From assembly GCF_003945235.1 (NCBI RefSeq), contig NZ_RSDW01000001.1:3570001-3602000 (forward strand): DNA of 32,000 bases, written 5' to 3'. Of the stretch, positions 10,443-18,029 are shown piece by piece (position 1 is the first letter of the stretch; each line of letters starts with the position of its first letter). Under the pieces are notes generated by a model. The model was not told where the DNA came from and searched no databases. It saw only the letters and a list, made by a program, of their open reading frames with translations. Made by a program: the position numbers and the translations under genes. Source of the stretch: Edaphobacter aggregans. Lineage in GTDB: Bacteria > Acidobacteriota > Terriglobia > Terriglobales > Acidobacteriaceae.

Positions 10443-11891
10443 ATGTGTCAAATGTCTAACGTCGAATCAACTCCGAATAGGCCTGCGACAAAGTATTCTG
10501 TATCCATGCCGCAGGTTGAAACCGAGCAAACCCAGCAGCGCTTAGGCTACGAACCCGACGCCCCCACCGGTCCCGCTTCCTTCGAGTCCTGGGGTCGCTA
10601 CCCCGCCTACAATGCAAACATCATCCCGATTCACTGGCAAGGTGATTTCCTTGACGCTGCGAGCAAACTCCACAACGGTGCACTTCCCGTCGGTATGGGG
10701 CGCAGCTACGGCGACGTCTGCCTGCTCAAGGATGGCAACCTCCTCGTCACCACCGGCATGAACCGGATCATCGACTTTGACCCCGAGACAGGTCTCCTCA
10801 CCGCCGAAGCCGGAATGTCCCTCGCGCAGATACTCGACTTTATCGTTCCCCGCGGTTTTTTCCTGCCTGTCACGCCCGGCACAAAATACATAACCCTCGG
10901 CGGAGCAATTGCCAACGACATCCATGGCAAGAACCACCACGTCGCCGGAACCTTCGGTTGTCACGTCACCCAGTTCGAGCTCATCCGCTCCAACGGTGAC
11001 CGCAAACTCTGCACGCCCACGGAAAACTCCGACCTCTACGCCGCCACCATCGGAGGCCTCGGCCTCACCGGCTTCATCTCCTGGGCCACTTTGCGCCTCA
11101 AGCCCATCGTCTCCCGCAAAATCGACTACGAAGGCATCCAGTTCCGTGGCATCGACGAGTTCCTCGACCTCACAGAAGAGAGCAAGGACATCGAGTACAC
11201 CGTAAGCTGGGTCGACGTCACATCCACCGGCCGCAACTTCTGCCGCGGCATCTTCATGCAAGGCGATCACTCGCCGAAGAAGGATGAGCTAAAGCCCTCA
11301 CCCGAATCCAAACTCGTCTTTCCCTTCGAAGCTCCCAGCTTCGCCCTGAATCCGTTCTCCGTAGGCGCCTTTAACACAGCCTTCTACCACAAGCAGATTC
11401 GCAAGCGGGTCATGTCTCTCCTGGACTACGAGCCCTTCTTCTACCCGCTCGACAAAGTTCTCCACTGGAAGCGCATGTACGGCAAGCGTGGTCTGCTGCA
11501 GTTCCAGTACGTCATCCCATGGGAGTACGCCCGCGAAGGTACCGTAGCTATCCTCAAAGAGGTCGCCAAGTCCGGTCTCGCCAGCTTCCTCGCAGTCCTC
11601 AAAGCCTTCGGCGACTTCCCCTCGCCCGGCCTCATGAGCTTCCCCAAGCCCGGCATCACCCTCGCGCTCGATTTCCCCATCAAGCCCGGCAAAAGCTTCC
11701 CCCTCTTCGAGCGTCTCGCTGACATGACCCTCGAGTTCGGCGGCCGCCTCTATCCCGCCAAGGACGCGGCCATGACCGCCCGCCAGTTCCAGGCCTTCTA
11801 TCCGCAATGGCAGGAATTCGCCCGCTACCGTGATCCCCTCCTCACCTCTAGCTTCTGGGAGCGCGTCACCGGTGATCGACCGACTTTATGA
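10443..11891 (+). CDS. FAD-dependent oxidase, decaprenylphosphoryl-beta-D-ribose oxidase (DprE1)-like
   Basis: Blocks match my recollection of M. tuberculosis DprE1: GMGRSYGD, GGAIANDIHGKNHH, LLQFQYVIP, LDFPIK, FGGRLYPAKD. The start is uncertain (ATG 10443, 10452 or 10506). Confidence 0.85.
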   Translation: MCQMSNVESTPNRPATKYSVSMPQVETEQTQQRLGYEPDAPTGPASFESWGRYPAYNANIIPIHWQGDFLDAASKLHNGALPVGMGRSYGDVCLLKDGNLLVTTGMNRIIDFDPETGLLTAEAGMSLAQILDFIVPRGFFLPVTPGTKYITLGGAIANDIHGKNHHVAGTFGCHVTQFELIRSNGDRKLCTPTENSDLYAATIGGLGLTGFISWATLRLKPIVSRKIDYEGIQFRGIDEFLDLTEESKDIEYTVSWVDVTSTGRNFCRGIFMQGDHSPKKDELKPSPESKLVFPFEAPSFALNPFSVGAFNTAFYHKQIRKRVMSLLDYEPFFYPLDKVLHWKRMYGKRGLLQFQYVIPWEYAREGTVAILKEVAKSGLASFLAVLKAFGDFPSPGLMSFPKPGITLALDFPIKPGKSFPLFERLADMTLEFGGRLYPAKDAAMTARQFQAFYPQWQEFARYRDPLLTSSFWERVTGDRPTL

Positions 11892-12652
11892 ATCAGACCC
11901 CAGGCACGACCGCACCCCGCAAAATTCTCGTTCTAGGAGCCACCTCAGGCATAGCCGAAGCCACCTCCCGCATTTGGGCCAGCCAGGGTGCGAGTCTCTT
12001 TCTCGTTGCCCGTAACGCAGAAAAGCTAGCCGCTGTAGCCGCCGACCTCAAGGCCCGCGGAGCCAGCTACATCGACACTGCCGTAGTCGATCTCGACAAC
12101 GTAGACCATCACCCAGCGTTGCTGGCCCATGCCATCAACTCGCTCACTGGCCTCGACGTCGCCTACCTCGCGCACGGAGTTCTCGGCGACCAGACCCAAG
12201 CCGAGCAGGACTTCAACGCGGCAGCCCACATCCTCTACACCAATCTGGTTGCCCCGGTCTCGCTCCTCACGTGGTTGGCCAACTACTTCGTGCAGCGCCA
12301 CTCCGGCACCATCGCAGTTCTCTCGTCGGTAGCCGGAGACCGCGGCCGCAAATCTAACTACGTCTATGGCTCCTCGAAGGCCGGACTCTCCGCCTTCCTC
12401 GCAGGCCTGCGCAACCGCGTAGATCGCGAAGGAGTCACGGTCCTTACCATCAAACCCGGCCCCACCAAGACCGCGATGACCGCTGGCATGAAGGGTAGCG
12501 AGAAGTTCGCCGACGTCAACAAGGTTGCAGAATCAATCGTCAGCGCGATCGACAGCGGCAAGGACAACCTCTACGTCCCATTCCAGTGGCAGCCCATCAT
12601 GTTCGTCATCCGCAACATCCCGGACCGCATCTTCAAAAAGCTAAATCTTTGA
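11888..12652 (+). CDS. SDR reductase, decaprenylphospho-erythro-pentofuranosid-2-ulose 2-reductase (DprE2)-like
   Basis: 254 aa, the same length as I recall for mycobacterial DprE2. Motifs LGATSGIAEA, YVYGSSKAGL (YxxxK) and a C-terminal IPDRIFKKLNL tail resembling IPRSIFRKLPI. ATGA start/stop overlap with the upstream DprE1-like gene. Confidence 0.85.
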   Translation: MNQTPGTTAPRKILVLGATSGIAEATSRIWASQGASLFLVARNAEKLAAVAADLKARGASYIDTAVVDLDNVDHHPALLAHAINSLTGLDVAYLAHGVLGDQTQAEQDFNAAAHILYTNLVAPVSLLTWLANYFVQRHSGTIAVLSSVAGDRGRKSNYVYGSSKAGLSAFLAGLRNRVDREGVTVLTIKPGPTKTAMTAGMKGSEKFADVNKVAESIVSAIDSGKDNLYVPFQWQPIMFVIRNIPDRIFKKLNL

Positions 12653-13670
12653 TCCACTCCAGACGGTCTGATTTCTTACTGGCAGTCTGCTGTTGTTGCG
12701 CCATCTGCTGCTGACGCGTAGGCGGAGGCAGTTGTTCCGGCAACTGCTGCGCCCTCTCCACCAGGATCGACCAGTCCTCAGGCACCGGCAGCTCCTGGTC
12801 AAGCGACGGCGCGCCTTCACTCTGCGTCACCCGCACCGCCACAGTAAGCTCACTCGCCGCCCGCCCGCGAAAGATCCCATGCGTCGGCGGAACATCCGAG
12901 TAATCCCGCCCAATCGCTGTCCGAATATGCCGGTCACCCGCCACCAGCCAGTTCGTCGGATCAAATCCAACCCACCCCAGATGCGGCATCAACACTTCAA
13001 TCCAGGCATGAGTGGCCGAGCGAATCGAGCGGTCCATATCACTCTCGCCATGAAATAAATAACCGCTCACATACCGGCAGGGAATCCGCAGCTTCGACCG
13101 AACCAGCGTAGTCATAATGTGCGCAAAGTCCTGACAAACTCCCGTCTTTGTACTCAGCGCAAGATCAATCGGCGAATCCACCTTCGTCGACTTCGGCTTA
13201 TAGTCAAAGTGCTCATACATCTGCTGATTCAGCTGATGCAGCACCATCATCGGATCATCTCTACGCCGAACATCCAGCTCCGAAGCCAGCTCATCCAGCG
13301 CATCCGTCGGAGCAGCAAACTCACTCGGCAGCAGCATCTCCCAGTAGTCTCCCTGCTCCACCATCGCATCCAGTTCATCCCACGCATCCGGAGCAAGAAA
13401 CGCCGGAACCTGCGGAAGCGGCTGCATCTCCACCAGCGACTCCGCCACAATTACCAACTGTCCATGCTGCCCCGGAATGTCGAAGTGGTGCACATGATTC
13501 GCCAGATGATCGCGATAACCAAACACCCTGCACCGCGGACTCACCGACAGATGAAACGTCAGGCAGCGCTGGTTCTGGTCGTTCCGCGGATGCATCCGCG
13601 TCTCCATCATGCTCTCGCTCACGGAGTTGCTGTACAGAAACTTCGTCAAGTGGCGAATCGAATAGTACAT
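12633..13670 (-). CDS. Transglutaminase-like cysteine protease family protein (Bact_transglu_N plus transglutaminase core) with a Gln-rich C-terminal tail
   Basis: N-terminus MYYSIRHLTKFLYSNSVSESMMETRMHP is typical of the family. Cys-His-Asp triad context: GVCQDFAH, THAWIEV, GFDPTN. AAGGAGGAG SD upstream of ATG 13670. Confidence 0.85.
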   Translation of the reverse strand: MYYSIRHLTKFLYSNSVSESMMETRMHPRNDQNQRCLTFHLSVSPRCRVFGYRDHLANHVHHFDIPGQHGQLVIVAESLVEMQPLPQVPAFLAPDAWDELDAMVEQGDYWEMLLPSEFAAPTDALDELASELDVRRRDDPMMVLHQLNQQMYEHFDYKPKSTKVDSPIDLALSTKTGVCQDFAHIMTTLVRSKLRIPCRYVSGYLFHGESDMDRSIRSATHAWIEVLMPHLGWVGFDPTNWLVAGDRHIRTAIGRDYSDVPPTHGIFRGRAASELTVAVRVTQSEGAPSLDQELPVPEDWSILVERAQQLPEQLPPPTRQQQMAQQQQTASKKSDRLEWIKDLAF

Positions 13671-13705
13671 CCAGCTCCTCCTTCTGCGTCGAATCTCATC
13701 TCTGC

Positions 13706-14689
13706 CTAACCCGCCAACGCCGCCTGGATCGGGTAGTCCACATAAAGCTCATAGATCATCTCGTGAATCGCCCTGCACTGTGTCTGAATATTGCGCAGGT
13801 AAGCCACCACATCGTCCTTCAGAATGTCGTCGACGCCGCTATAGCTCAACAACGCCTGCAGACGCCCCGACAAGCGACGCAGAGGCTCCGCCCGATTCTT
13901 GCCGCTCTCTCGATGGATCGCCTCCAGCGCATTCTGCATGCTGTCAATCGAGAACCTCAGCGAGTGCGGAAACTCCTCATCTAGCAGCAGGAACTCAAAG
14001 ATCCTGTCCGGCGTAAGATCGGCTGTGTAGACCTTGCAGTACGCCTCAAACGCCGTAGCCGACCGCAGCAAGCCCATCCACTCCAAATACTCGTTGCCCT
14101 CTGACATCCGCTCCGGATACCCCCACAGATCCTCGTGATAAGCCTCCAGCAACATCGCGGTCGCAGAAGCGCGCTCAATGTAACGCCCCACCTGAATAAA
14201 CTGCCAACCCTCACCATGGCTCATCGTCGAGTCAGTCACACCCTGAAACTGATGCACTGCCTCCATCACCGACTGTAGAAACTCCGTCGGCTGAGCCATC
14301 TCCTGCAACGCCTCTGCATGCATATCGCTCTGCATCTCAGGCCGCGTCACCTGCAAATACAGGCTATTCAGCCGATGCCACTGCTCCGTCGAGATCTGCT
14401 CCCTCACATGCCGCGAGTTCTCACGCGCAGAAATAATGCAAGACACAATAGCGGCCTTATTCTCCGTATTGAAAGTCAAGCTACGCATCAGCGCATACGG
14501 ATCGCCCGTAAACTCAACGCCCTTCGGATGCCCCAGCGCCTGCAACGCCCGATGCCACCGCCGCTCCGCACTAGTCGAGCTCTCATCCAGCATCAAATTC
14601 AGATTCACATCCAGCAGCCGCGTCGTATGCTCCGCCCGCTCGAGATACCGGCTCATCCAATACAAACTATCCGCAACACGGCTTAGCAT
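13706..14689 (-). CDS. Alpha-E domain protein (DUF403 family)
   Basis: MLSRVADSLYWMSRYLERAEHTTRLLDVN is the hallmark N-terminus of alpha-E proteins. Start placed at ATG 14689, 5 nt after GGGAGG. The track's GTG 14695 lies inside that SD. Confidence 0.85.
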   Translation of the reverse strand: MLSRVADSLYWMSRYLERAEHTTRLLDVNLNLMLDESSTSAERRWHRALQALGHPKGVEFTGDPYALMRSLTFNTENKAAIVSCIISARENSRHVREQISTEQWHRLNSLYLQVTRPEMQSDMHAEALQEMAQPTEFLQSVMEAVHQFQGVTDSTMSHGEGWQFIQVGRYIERASATAMLLEAYHEDLWGYPERMSEGNEYLEWMGLLRSATAFEAYCKVYTADLTPDRIFEFLLLDEEFPHSLRFSIDSMQNALEAIHRESGKNRAEPLRRLSGRLQALLSYSGVDDILKDDVVAYLRNIQTQCRAIHEMIYELYVDYPIQAALAG

Positions 14690-14701
14690 CGGCACCTCCC
14701 T

Positions 14702-16168
14702 TCATTGACTCAACACCCACGTATCCTTACTCCCGCCGCCCTGCGACGAATTCACCACCAGCGACCCACGCTTCAAAGCCACCCGCGTCAACCCACCCGG
14801 CACAACCGTCACCTTATCCCCATAGAGCACATAAGGCCGCAAATCCACATGCCGAGGCTCCAGCGCGTTATCAATCAAACAAGGCGCACGCGAAAACGAG
14901 ATCGTAGGCTGCGCGATATAGTTTCTCGGATCGGACTCGATCTTCCGAGCAAACTCCTCACGCTGCTCCGCCGTCGACTGCGGCCCGATCAGCATCCCAT
15001 ACCCACCGCTCTCACCCACAGCCTTCACCACCAGCTTGTCCAGATTCTGCAGCACATGCTGCCGTTCCTTCGGACGAGTCAGCAGATACGTCTCCACATT
15101 CTTCAGCACCGGCTCCTCAGTCAGGTAGTAGCGAATAATATCCGGCACATACGCATACAGCGCCTTATCATCGGCAACACCCGTGCCGAACGCATTCGCC
15201 AGCGTCACGTTCCCCGCGCGATACGCATTGAACAACCCGGCTACACCAAGAATCGAATCCCCACGAAACGCGAGCGGATCGATAAAGTCATCATCGACGC
15301 GCCGATAGATCACATCCACCCGCCGCAATCCATTCGTCGTCCGCATGTAGACGATGTTGTCGTGCGTCACCAGGTCGCGCCCCTCGACCAACTCAATACC
15401 CATCTGCCGAGCCAAATAAGCGTGCTCAAAGTAAGCCGAGTTGAACACCCCCGGCGAAAGCAGCACAATATTCGGCTCCGGCCGACCCTCAGGCGCAAGC
15501 GAACGCAGCGTCCCTAGTAACAACTGCGTGTACTGCTCAATCGGCCTGACGTTATAACTGCGGAACAACTGCGGAAAGATCCGCTTCATCACGCGCCGGT
15601 TCGTCAGCATGTAACTCACGCCGCTCGGCACTCGCAAGTTGTCTTCAAGAACGACAAACTCGCCGTTCTCCATCCGGATCAGGTCCGTACCGCAAACAGC
15701 GATATAGACATTCCGAGGCACCTGCAGCCCAATCATCTGTCGGCGATACTGCTTGCAGCTGTACACCACCTCACGCGGTACGATCCCATCCTTCAGGATG
15801 CGTCCCTCGTTATAAATGTCCCTCAGAAAAAGATTCAGCGCCGTAATTCGCTGCGACAGCCCCTGCTCCACAATCGCCCACTCGGCTGCAGTGATGATGC
15901 GCGGCAACAGGTCATACGGAAAGATCTTCTCCGTCCCCTCCTCGCGCCCATACACCGTGAACGTGATGCCCTGATTCAGAAAGCTGAGGTCCGCCGCCTG
16001 CTTCCGTCGCTGCAACTCATCCGGGGGCAGGGAAGTGAAGTGCTCCAGCAACAGCTGCGTGTGCTTGTGTAACTCACCCGGCCCAGCGAACATCTCGTCG
16101 TAGGCATGGTCCAGCAAATAGTTTTTCAGTGCAGGATGCTCGAACTGGATCGACTGAGTTGGCTGCAT
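14702..16168 (-). CDS. Circularly permuted type-2 ATP-grasp protein (COG2308-like amidoligase)
   Basis: 488 aa from ATG 16168 ([27 protein letters not shown]...). Conserved family blocks [54 protein letters not shown]. The stop is 12 bp before the alpha-E start. Confidence 0.85.
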
Positions 16169-16179
16169 TGGGAGCCTTG

Positions 16180-16208
16180 AGTATAGCGGCACATCCGCGC
16201 GCGACCAA
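16180..16208 (-). promoter_or_regulatory. Candidate sigma70-type promoter TTGGTC-17 bp-TATACT in front of the ATP-grasp gene
   Basis: Minus strand: TTGGTC (16208-16203), a 17-bp spacer, TATACT (16185-16180). The ATG at 16168 is only 11 nt downstream of the -10 box, implying a near-leaderless mRNA if the promoter is real. Confidence 0.25.
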
Positions 16209-16221
16209 GAAAATCCGAGCC

Positions 16222-16857
16222 TTACTTCTCCACCCGGTGCCCGTCCTTGCTGAAGTAGCTCAACTGACGCCGGTAGCAGCGCTGATGCTCCAAATCGAAC
16301 GCAATGCACGAATCAAAGGGCTTAGAGTACACATGCAGGCTGATGCACCCCACAGTGCCGGCATTCTCGATCTGGTGGATCGTCTGCAGCTTATCCACCG
16401 TCACCATGCCCGTCCCCTCAGCACAGCTTACCGTCCGCACCTTATCGATCTGCAACTCCGTCGCTCCACCCAGGCAGTCGATATTCACCACATTTTGGTT
16501 CTCCGGAGCGTTGCAACTCGTATGGTGAAACTCGTGCGTCAGTACCTCACCCTGCGACACCGTCATCCACCCAAGTTGCCCGTTATGTGTATGAATCGCG
16601 GTCTTCTGTCCCGGTGACCAGCAGATCGTCATCACCTCGAACAGCTCATCCCGATAGATCAGGTTGCGCGTATAGAAGCTGTCCCGCCACCACACATAGT
16701 CATGCAGAGACTCGGGCCGCAGCGTCATCGCCCCCATGTACTCCGCAATCCTATCCTTCGTAATCAGGTCCCGCTCCAGATCCCGCAGTCCGGCAATAAA
16801 GTCCGGCACGCTGGTCCTGAGCGGGTGGCTACAGTTCGCTATCGAAGCGCTTTCCAT
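16222..16857 (-). CDS. Cysteine dioxygenase type I family cupin (Arg-type, bacterial Gly variant)
   Basis: Blocks match my recollection of mammalian CDO: FYTRNL (Arg), [14 protein letters not shown] (HxH), TIHQIEN (third His), [16 protein letters not shown] (Tyr). Gly occupies the position of the eukaryotic cross-link Cys. GGGAGGAG SD upstream. Confidence 0.8.
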
Positions 16858-16911
16858 GGTCTCCTCCCAGATTCCTCTACATCCATTATCGCTCCGGGTG
16901 AAACGAAGGTC

Positions 16912-16923
16912 GCGAAATTTCGC
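16912..16923. promoter_or_regulatory. 12-bp perfect palindrome GCGAAATTTCGC between the zf-UBP stop and the CDO start
   Basis: Read directly from the sequence. It abuts the zf-UBP stop codon (16924-16926) and lies 55-66 bp upstream of the CDO ATG. Confidence 0.3.
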
Positions 16924-17187
16924 CTAATCCAACTCAAACATCAACTCATCGACATAGCACCAGTACCAGCTCTCGCCGGGCTCAATCGATCGAATGATTG
17001 GGTGCTTGGTCGCGTGAAAGTGCTTCGTCGCATGTTTTCCGATGGACGAGTCGCAGCAGCCCACATGCCCGCACTCCATGCACATGCGCAAATGCACCCA
17101 CGATTGCCCGATCTTCAAGCACTCTTCGCAGCCTTTGGTGTTGGGGTGGACAGGTTTGATCTGGTTTAGATGGTTACAGGTAGCCAT
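16924..17187 (-). CDS. UBP-type zinc-finger (zf-UBP) domain protein, 87 aa
   Basis: MATCNHLNQIKPVHPNTKGCEECLKIGQSWVHLRMCMECGHVGCCDSSIGKHATKHFHATKHP has the Cys/His spacing of zf-UBP. Start placed at ATG 17187, because the longer track start at 17247 falls inside the 15-bp hairpin. Confidence 0.75.
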   Translation of the reverse strand: MATCNHLNQIKPVHPNTKGCEECLKIGQSWVHLRMCMECGHVGCCDSSIGKHATKHFHATKHPIIRSIEPGESWYWCYVDELMFELD

Positions 17188-17276: not shown

Positions 17277-18029
17277 TTACTGGCGCTGGCCGCCGGTCAA
17301 GAGCAGCGTCTGCCCCGTGACCCAGCCCGCATCATCCGAAGCGAAGAAGACGGCAGCCTTCGCGATATCCACTGGCTGCGCGATCCGCCCCAACGGAGTA
17401 ATCGACTCCACATGCTTGCGGAAGTCGCTCTCTGCGAACCCAACCGCATGCAGTCCTTCGGTCTCAACCATCCCCGGATTCAGCGAGTTCACCCGAATCT
17501 TCTTCGGCCCGAGCTCCTGCGAAAGTGAGATCGTGATGGCATCGACCGCCGCCTTCGTGGCACTGTAAACCGAGGCCTGCGGCACAGGCATCTGGCCCAC
17601 AATTGAGCTGATATTGATGATCGAGCCACCCTCCGGCCCAAAGTGCTTCACCGCCTCCTGAGTCGTCAGCAGCAAGCCCAGCACGTTCAAATCGAACTGC
17701 GAGTGAAAGTGCTCCGGCGTAATCGCCTCCAGCGGTTTGAAATCAAAGATGCCCGCATTATTGACGAGGATATCGACCTTGCCATAGGCCGCAAGCGTCT
17801 CCTTGAAGAGCTTCTGAATATCCTCCGCCTTCGAAACATTCCCTTGTACCGCAATGGCTTTACCACCCTTGCCGGTGATCTTCGCCACAACAGCATCCGC
17901 TCCGGCCTTGCTGCTGCTGTAGTTCACCACTACAGACGCCCCTTCGGCGCCAAGATGCTCTGCAATCGAGGCCCCAATGCCCTTCGAAGCGCCAGTAACT
18001 ACAGCCACTTTTCCTGCAAGCTTACTCAT
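17277..18029 (-). CDS. SDR family oxidoreductase (FabG / glucose-1-dehydrogenase-like)
   Basis: TGASKGIGAS, NNAG, YSATK. AGGAGA SD upstream of ATG 18029. Confidence 0.9.
   Translation of the reverse strand: MSKLAGKVAVVTGASKGIGASIAEHLGAEGASVVVNYSSSKAGADAVVAKITGKGGKAIAVQGNVSKAEDIQKLFKETLAAYGKVDILVNNAGIFDFKPLEAITPEHFHSQFDLNVLGLLLTTQEAVKHFGPEGGSIINISSIVGQMPVPQASVYSATKAAVDAITISLSQELGPKKIRVNSLNPGMVETEGLHAVGFAESDFRKHVESITPLGRIAQPVDIAKAAVFFASDDAGWVTGQTLLLTGGQRQ

Follow-up and report, generated by a model that had tools for sequence, protein, structure and literature searches.

An Anbu-less ATP-grasp/alpha-E/transglutaminase-like triad in Edaphobacter aggregans, very probably independent of the adjoining cysteine dioxygenase and zf-UBP genes

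Background

The genes of COG2308, COG2307 and COG1305, which encode a circularly permuted ATP-grasp protein, an alpha-E protein and a transglutaminase-like cysteine peptidase, form a known operon that often also carries the proteasome homologue Anbu (Valas & Bourne 2008, PMC3235984; PMC5666114), and COG2308 has been found in Anbu-less genomes as well (PMC3235984). In the account given in PMC3495828, Iyer et al. 2009 (Aravind group) predicted that the triad is a peptide-ligase system: the ATP-grasp protein would add an amide-linked tag or build a peptide and the transglutaminase-like protein would be the peptidase that removes it. A Yersinia ATP-grasp protein frees phosphate from ATP, and complexes or substrates were not found for it (PMC6376114). 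The Pseudomonas putida triad operon is induced under nitrogen limitation (PMC5666114; PMC8050072), with PP_2685 and PP_2688 about 16-fold or more up on nitrate compared with ammonium (PMC8050072, Table 2). Here we analyze such a triad in a stretch of 32,000 nucleotides (nt) of the Edaphobacter aggregans chromosome (contig NZ_RSDW01000001.1, positions 3,570,001 to 3,602,000), hereafter the window, where it is preceded on the same strand by genes for a zf-UBP mini-protein and a cysteine dioxygenase (CDO).

A preliminary description of this region took the five genes for one candidate system of peptide ligation or protein tagging. On the comparative evidence presented here we consider it very probable that they are three independent units, the triad, the CDO gene and the zf-UBP gene, lying head to tail on one strand of the core chromosome of an Edaphobacter/Granulicella-like acidobacterium. 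The full set of five genes occurs in a single species, and its best explanation is that genes were inserted into a plastic intergenic slot. The adjacency of the zf-UBP and CDO genes to the triad is not conserved and may have arisen by chance. What the preliminary description had said of the triad itself, that it is a widely conserved neighbourhood and a predicted peptide ligase, often found with Anbu and with an undemonstrated product, is borne out by the literature (PMC3495828, PMC6376114, PMC5666114, PMC3235984).

Comparison of loci among relatives

Two samples of loci were compared with the window. On the triad side, one genome per species was scanned, which gave 80 loci whose ATP-grasp protein shares 75-92% identity with that of the window, all from Acidobacteriaceae (Tunturibacter, Granulicella, Edaphobacter, Terriglobus, Terracidiphilus and others), and the window proteins were searched against each locus and its flanks of +/-10 kb by tblastn. 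On the zf-UBP side, metagenomes were scanned for the closest homologues, which yielded 80 loci at 68-99% identity; 53 of these loci are at least 6 kb long. One of these contigs, L093, is 99-100% identical to the window and is therefore assigned to the same species, leaving 79 loci from other species. The closest CDO-bearing genome, the Edaphobacter locus L003, served as reference for the alignment of insertions and deletions.

No zf-UBP gene was detected within +/-10 kb of any of the 80 triad loci, even at E = 10, and none of the 79 other-species zf-UBP loci has a CDO, ATP-grasp, alpha-E or transglutaminase-like gene nearby; the single metagenome locus of 80 with CDO or ATP-grasp near zf-UBP is the same-species contig L093. 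CDO is present at four of the 80 triad loci (L003, L004, L007 and L011), all of them close relatives. The five-gene order of the window recurs in L093 and in a second, short contig of the same species, L091.

The triad

Of the 74 informative triad loci, those with enough downstream sequence, 71 preserve the order ATP-grasp, alpha-E, transglutaminase-like, and alpha-E follows ATP-grasp with a median hit-to-hit gap of 39 nt. The ATP-grasp protein scores 572 bits against a Pfam cut-off of 32 (PF14403/PF04174) and matches PDB 3N6X, a structural-genomics entry named 'putative glutathionylspermidine synthase' by its depositors, at 9.8e-175 and with about 65% identity as read off the alignment. We take Rv2411c to be the mycobacterial homologue of the triad ATP-grasp. 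According to a 2026 preprint on Rv2411c, that protein does not make gamma-aminobutyric acid (GABA)-trehalose. Alpha-E (PF04168), encoded directly downstream, scores 302 bits against a cut-off of 20.8, and a GTG at 14695 is a possible alternative start. No solved structural homologue of alpha-E was found by sequence, and its AlphaFold2 model, built from an alignment of 33 sequences that are all 80-87% identical, was too poor for a fold search (mean predicted local distance difference test score, pLDDT, 40.6; predicted template modelling score, pTM, 0.32).

Both Pfam domains of the transglutaminase-like protein exceed their cut-offs, and the Cys-His-Asp fold proposed earlier is present with Cys179, His221 and Asp237 intact, within the motifs GVCQDF, THAWIE and GFDPT, which align to the corresponding motifs of PDB 3ISR and 6G49. 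The C-terminal approximately 60 amino acids of this protein (12633-12830, minus strand) form a Gln/Pro-rich low-complexity tail, which includes QQLPEQLPPPTRQQQMAQQQQTASKK and the coding sequence of which runs into the convergent short-chain dehydrogenase (SDR) gene. The tail appears to be variable, as tblastn matches from relatives end before it.

The triad is therefore a conserved unit and an Anbu-less acidobacterial member of the known COG2308/COG2307/COG1305 operon, with which it shares the three Pfam families, their order and the catalytic Cys, His and Asp. It differs in having no Anbu: no proteasome-family Pfam match was obtained in the sizeable open reading frames (ORFs) of the window that were scanned, as the preliminary description had stated, nor is there an Anbu/proteasome domain in the called genes of the two relatives inspected, L088 and L092. 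A further difference is the sigma-70-like, nearly leaderless candidate promoter of the window triad described below. Some relatives also depart from the known operon in carrying a same-strand gene between alpha-E and the transglutaminase-like gene, which is an Acyl_transf_3 membrane acyltransferase in two loci (L001:12464-13471, L092:5974-7026) and, in a third, an M61 glycyl aminopeptidase (Peptidase_M61; L012:12690-14669). These inserts suggest that the third triad gene is less tightly coupled than would be expected of a single operon.

Judging from the protein families, the most likely mechanism begins with the ATP-grasp protein, which, probably together with alpha-E, would convert a carboxylate into an acyl-phosphate and then make an amide or peptide linkage, either on a protein or on a small molecule. 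That linkage would in turn be hydrolysed or transferred by the transglutaminase-fold Cys-His-Asp enzyme.

Candidate promoters and transcription units

Evidence for promoters was sought in conservation across relatives. The generic consensus scan for promoters and terminators was uninformative: it left the triad promoter uncalled (8 of 12 positions match) and gave no more sites than in shuffled sequence. Upstream of the ATP-grasp gene, TTGGTC (16208-16203) and TATACT (16185-16180) are separated by 17 nt, and the ATG follows 11 nt downstream. In each of the 30 closest loci (L001-L030), TATACT precedes the ATP-grasp ATG at a short distance, between a few nt and about 20 nt, whatever gene is located upstream (typA, CDO, a hydrolase or another). 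The 13-nt block CGCTATACTCAAG, or at least its TATACT, is found upstream of the start in each of these, and TTGnnn at a spacing of 16-18 nt recurs in many of them. The more distant loci L031-L080 lack the TATACT block and have AAGGA-type ribosome-binding sites instead. The closeness of TATACT to the ATG points either to an mRNA with almost no leader and no Shine-Dalgarno sequence or to an operator placed over the -10 box.

As judged by this conservation, the TATACT element turns out to be a likely sigma-70-like promoter of the triad's own and the most robust regulatory signal of the region. The triad would be driven by this TTGnnn-N17-TATACT promoter, located almost at the start codon, and the caveat in the preliminary description, that a promoter at 16180-16208 may split the triad from the upstream genes, gains support from the 30 closest loci.

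A second element, GATAAT (16890-16885), lies within the zf-UBP/CDO spacer and recurs, approximately 25-75 nt before the CDO start, in seven loci (the window, L093, L092, L003, L011, L007 and L088), in which the preceding gene varies (zf-UBP, SDR or a divergent phospholipase C). It is a candidate promoter element of CDO itself, and a strong Shine-Dalgarno sequence, GGGAGGAG, precedes the CDO gene. The conserved promoter-like elements before CDO and before ATP-grasp argue for separate transcription, and each unit appears, from these patterns, to bring its own promoter.

The cysteine dioxygenase

The preliminary description had called the CDO bona fide-looking, and the residues kept relative to rat and human CDO agree with this: Arg64 (in YTRNL), His89, His91, His161 and Ser173-His175-Tyr177 are all retained. 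In the alignment they stand opposite Arg60, His86, His88, His140 and Ser153-His155-Tyr157 of rat CDO. An Arg, three His and Ser-His-Tyr set is the signature of true bacterial 'Arg-type' CDO, as opposed to the 'Gln-type' 3-mercaptopropionate dioxygenases. The cross-linking Cys93 of mammalian CDO is replaced by Gly96, and the Cys-Tyr cross-link is missing; glycine at this position is usual in bacterial CDOs and is no argument against CDO activity. With bacterial Arg-type CDO (PDB 3EQE, 4QM8) and mammalian CDO (2B5H) the window enzyme shares the cupin three-His iron site, the Arg for the substrate carboxylate and the Ser-His-Tyr set. It differs from Bacillus CDO in being longer (211 amino acids), and it scores better against mammalian CDO than against Bacillus CDO. 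The enzyme would oxidise free L-cysteine to cysteine sulfinate and may serve cysteine catabolism or thiol homeostasis.

Wherever a CDO of at least 79% identity has readable context (L003, L004, L007, L011, L087, L088, L092 and L093), it lies at the typA-triad locus and on the triad's strand. The same gap is variable, being empty or filled, depending on the genome, by a dehydrogenase, an ArsR-type regulator, a phospholipase C, CDO, a hydrolase or a MazE/PIN pair. In L001 (Tunturibacter empetritectus) and L002 (Granulicella sp. S190), the two closest cultured relatives, typA directly adjoins ATP-grasp, and CDO is missing from these two as well as from L005, L006 and L008 at equal ATP-grasp identity. 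CDO can also be separated from ATP-grasp, by a convergent alpha/beta-hydrolase gene in L007 (Granulicella aggregans) and by a MazE-like antitoxin/PIN-domain toxin pair in a Granulicella-like lineage represented by three assemblies (L088:7695-8353). Outside the clade, CDO homologues of 60-63% identity were unlinked to the triad in all four cases that could be placed, where their neighbours are PPK2, RibD_C, aminotransferase and ABC transporter genes.

The CDO is an independent gene beside the triad, confined to a small number of close lineages. That it adjoins the triad is accidental and peculiar to this clade, and the distribution fits a single ancestral insertion into a plastic locus with later losses.

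The zf-UBP mini-protein

Stand-alone zf-UBP mini-proteins were listed in 2008 for Acidobacteria and other phyla ('group07', PMC2602986). The family is very large and made up of stand-alone bacterial proteins of 85-90 amino acids; at least 8000 homologous clusters were scored in our homologue search. The window protein has the Cys/His zinc ligands of the domain, scores 49.6 bits against a cut-off of 22.7 (PF02148) and matches PDB 2IDA, a bacterial 'hypothetical protein' of 102 amino acids, at 4.7e-37. It resembles the stand-alone bacterial mini-proteins of the 2IDA type in being of equal length, in consisting of one domain and in its approximately 65% identity to 2IDA.

Ubiquitin recognition by USP5 and HDAC6 involves a G-R motif whose Arg binds the C-terminal (Gly76) carboxylate of ubiquitin. 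The window protein differs from the aligned eukaryotic USP ZnF-UBP domains in lacking this Arg: in alignments with USP49 (c-GRY) and USP16 (cGRN), the Arg stands opposite a Ser or Asp of the window motif CCDSS (residues 44-48). The sole residue that would justify the reading of a free C-terminus, as the preliminary description had supposed of this zinc finger, is therefore missing.

Just upstream of the zf-UBP gene is a perfect 15-bp hairpin with the arms GGAGTGAACGGACGG and CCGTCCGTTCACTCC (17270-17227), 6 nt past the stop codon of the upstream SDR gene. Its presence, noted in the preliminary description, was confirmed: with -33.8 kcal/mol (z = -5.3), it was matched in stability by none of 200 shuffled sequences, and no T-run follows it. 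Relative to L003, hairpin and zf-UBP gene form one indel of approximately 330 nt, and the block is found only in the species of the window, into which the two would have been inserted together. As a boundary of a five-gene system the hairpin was rejected; the stem-loop belongs to the 3' end of the upstream SDR gene and falls within the zf-UBP indel. The zf-UBP gene has the lowest G+C content of the region (0.53) and the weakest strand skew (-0.07 compared with -0.18 to -0.26 in its neighbours), a weak hint of recent arrival.

Elsewhere, zf-UBP homologues of 76-78% identity adjoin melibiase, lactonase or SDR genes. In 46 of the 79 other-species metagenome loci (L094-L172), the zf-UBP gene follows, on the same strand and at a median gap of about 113 nt, the gene for a signalling protein of approximately 1000 amino acids, and the convergent gene of a TerC membrane protein comes after it. 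In this protein a response-regulator receiver and a thioredoxin-reductase-like Pyr_redox_2 domain are joined to a cyclic-nucleotide (cNMP)-binding domain and a histidine-kinase ATPase domain (e.g. L123:2780-5974, L135:8192-9166). It is the only recurrent partner of the zf-UBP family seen here, and may reflect a redox or zinc role or plain lineage synteny. The zf-UBP gene of the window is a species-specific insertion, together with the stem-loop, and is unrelated to the triad.

Alternative explanations

One alternative is that first proposed for the locus, a single peptide-ligation or protein-tagging system. In it, free C-termini would be read by zf-UBP, the building block would be derived from cysteine and come from CDO, ligation would fall to the ATP-grasp protein, and the transglutaminase fold would form or remove the bond. 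The genes do share one strand with gaps of 12-66 bp and no strong terminators between them, their domain identities are confirmed, and their order is repeated in the two same-species contigs. We nevertheless regard this proposal as scarcely credible, given that zf-UBP is missing from every one of the 80 triad loci and both triad and CDO from all 79 other-species zf-UBP loci, that CDO is present at only four of the 80 triad loci, that a convergent gene or a toxin-antitoxin pair can come between CDO and the triad, that promoter-like elements are conserved before both CDO and ATP-grasp, that zf-UBP lacks the G-R motif Arg, and that zf-UBP and hairpin amount to a species-specific indel. A version in which CDO was recruited in the Edaphobacter/Granulicella subclade, cysteine sulfinate or a derivative being the substrate of ATP-grasp/alpha-E, and zf-UBP was added as an extra recognition step in this species, seems highly improbable. 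If zf-UBP is left out and CDO alone joined the triad in that subclade, e.g. with cysteine sulfinate as carboxylate or amine substrate of ATP-grasp, the constant position of the closest CDOs, in the typA-triad gap and in the same orientation as the triad, would be accounted for. CDO is patchy even in the closest relatives, its adjacency is broken by unrelated genes, the triad promoter is identical with or without CDO upstream, and the out-of-clade homologues are never linked to a triad, all of which makes this recruitment very unlikely. It is also very unlikely that zf-UBP and CDO form a two-gene thiol/redox module of this species, unrelated to the triad, in which the zinc protein senses or buffers thiol or zinc status. 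Such a module would agree with the 66-bp gap without stable structure, with the strong Shine-Dalgarno sequence before CDO and with the redox hint from the receiver/thioredoxin-reductase-like/cNMP-binding/histidine-kinase gene that precedes 46 of the 79 other zf-UBP genes; this last association may be lineage synteny, however, and the pairing occurs only in this species (L091, L093), the other CDO loci are without zf-UBP, and the conserved GATAAT of CDO lies inside the 66-bp spacer.

Several points weigh against the reading as three independent units. No terminator-like structure was found between zf-UBP and CDO (z = -0.2) or between CDO and ATP-grasp, so that read-through across all five genes is possible. 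The promoter calls rest on conservation, and CGCTATACTCAAG could be an operator or a 5'-untranslated-region element instead. In this clade CDO is always at the typA-triad locus, which may indicate a clade-restricted functional link. We still favour three independent units on the strength of synteny, by which the earlier unifying hypothesis fails for zf-UBP and largely fails for CDO; the preliminary description stands in its five domain assignments, all correct by Pfam, in what it says about the triad as a known neighbourhood and in its caveat about a promoter.

Genomic context

The five minus-strand genes fall within 12633-17187 (Table 1), with ATG starts at 17187, 16857, 16168, 14689 and 13670. 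With these starts the gaps reported earlier, from zf-UBP to the transglutaminase-like gene, are 66, 53, 12 and 35 bp as described, and the overlap of the last gene's 3' end with the convergent SDR gene on the plus strand was likewise found, at 20 nt.

Table 1. Coordinates of the genes and candidate regulatory features of the locus, numbered from the first nucleotide of the window
Feature	Position	Strand	Details and evidence
zf-UBP mini-protein	16924-17187	-	87 aa (amino acids); Pfam zf-UBP 4.6e-13
Arg-type cysteine dioxygenase (CDO)	16222-16857	-	211 aa; Pfam CDO_I 1.7e-15
Circularly permuted ATP-grasp	14702-16168	-	488 aa; Pfam CP_ATPgrasp_2 6.3e-172, CP_ATPgrasp_1 1.9e-154
Alpha-E	13706-14689	-	327 aa from ATG; Pfam Alpha-E 5.5e-90
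Transglutaminase-like cysteine peptidase	12633-13670	-	345 aa; Bact_transglu_N 9.5e-21, Transglut_core 1.7e-17
Candidate triad promoter	16180-16208	-	-35 TTGGTC, 17-nt spacer, -10 TATACT; conservation
GATAAT -10-like hexamer in the zf-UBP/CDO spacer	16885-16890	-	Candidate CDO promoter element; conservation only
Perfect 15-bp stem-loop	17227-17270	-	Fold energy compared with shuffles
Upstream short-chain dehydrogenase (SDR), flank outside the system	17277-18029	-	Pfam adh_short_C2 2e-61
Convergent SDR, flank	11888-12652	+	Pfam adh_short 1.4e-35

The convergent SDR gene, a FAD_binding_4 oxidase gene and rplT are the conserved downstream flank of the triad in the closest relatives. The oxidase (482 amino acids) and SDR genes (window 10443-12652) overlap by 4 nt (11888-11891), and the pair is conserved in the closest relatives. 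It resembles, we presume, an epimerase pair of the DprE1/DprE2 type. On the other side, the upstream SDR gene was seen in its position only in the window, L003, L091, L092 and L093.

The window belongs to the core chromosome, as indicated by gyrB, rplT, typA, sodA, tkt, rpiA and the 6-phosphogluconate dehydrogenase gene, and a defence or mobile-element reading was rejected on the basis of this gene content. None of the five proteins matched an entry in NCBIfam or PADLOC, so that they carry no curated names and the region is not among the catalogued defence systems. Rfam and tRNA scans of the window found nothing. Over the whole window (1-32000), the skew (G-C)/(G+C) is very strong and even, at approximately -0.24 overall. 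Individual genes range from -0.07 to -0.42, and the sign stays negative whichever way a gene is oriented, so that this is a strand (replication-type) bias and not a coding bias. The skew yields many long spurious ORFs on the opposite strand.

Conclusions

If the five genes did form one system, they would offer the first clue to a substrate of the orphan triad, a cysteine-derived unit, and free C-termini would have a reader in bacteria. On the comparative data, the cysteine clue falls away. The value that remains lies in a clean Anbu-less acidobacterial triad with a sharply conserved, nearly leaderless candidate promoter that would be usable in expression studies, and in a triad order that tolerates insertions between alpha-E and the transglutaminase-like gene.

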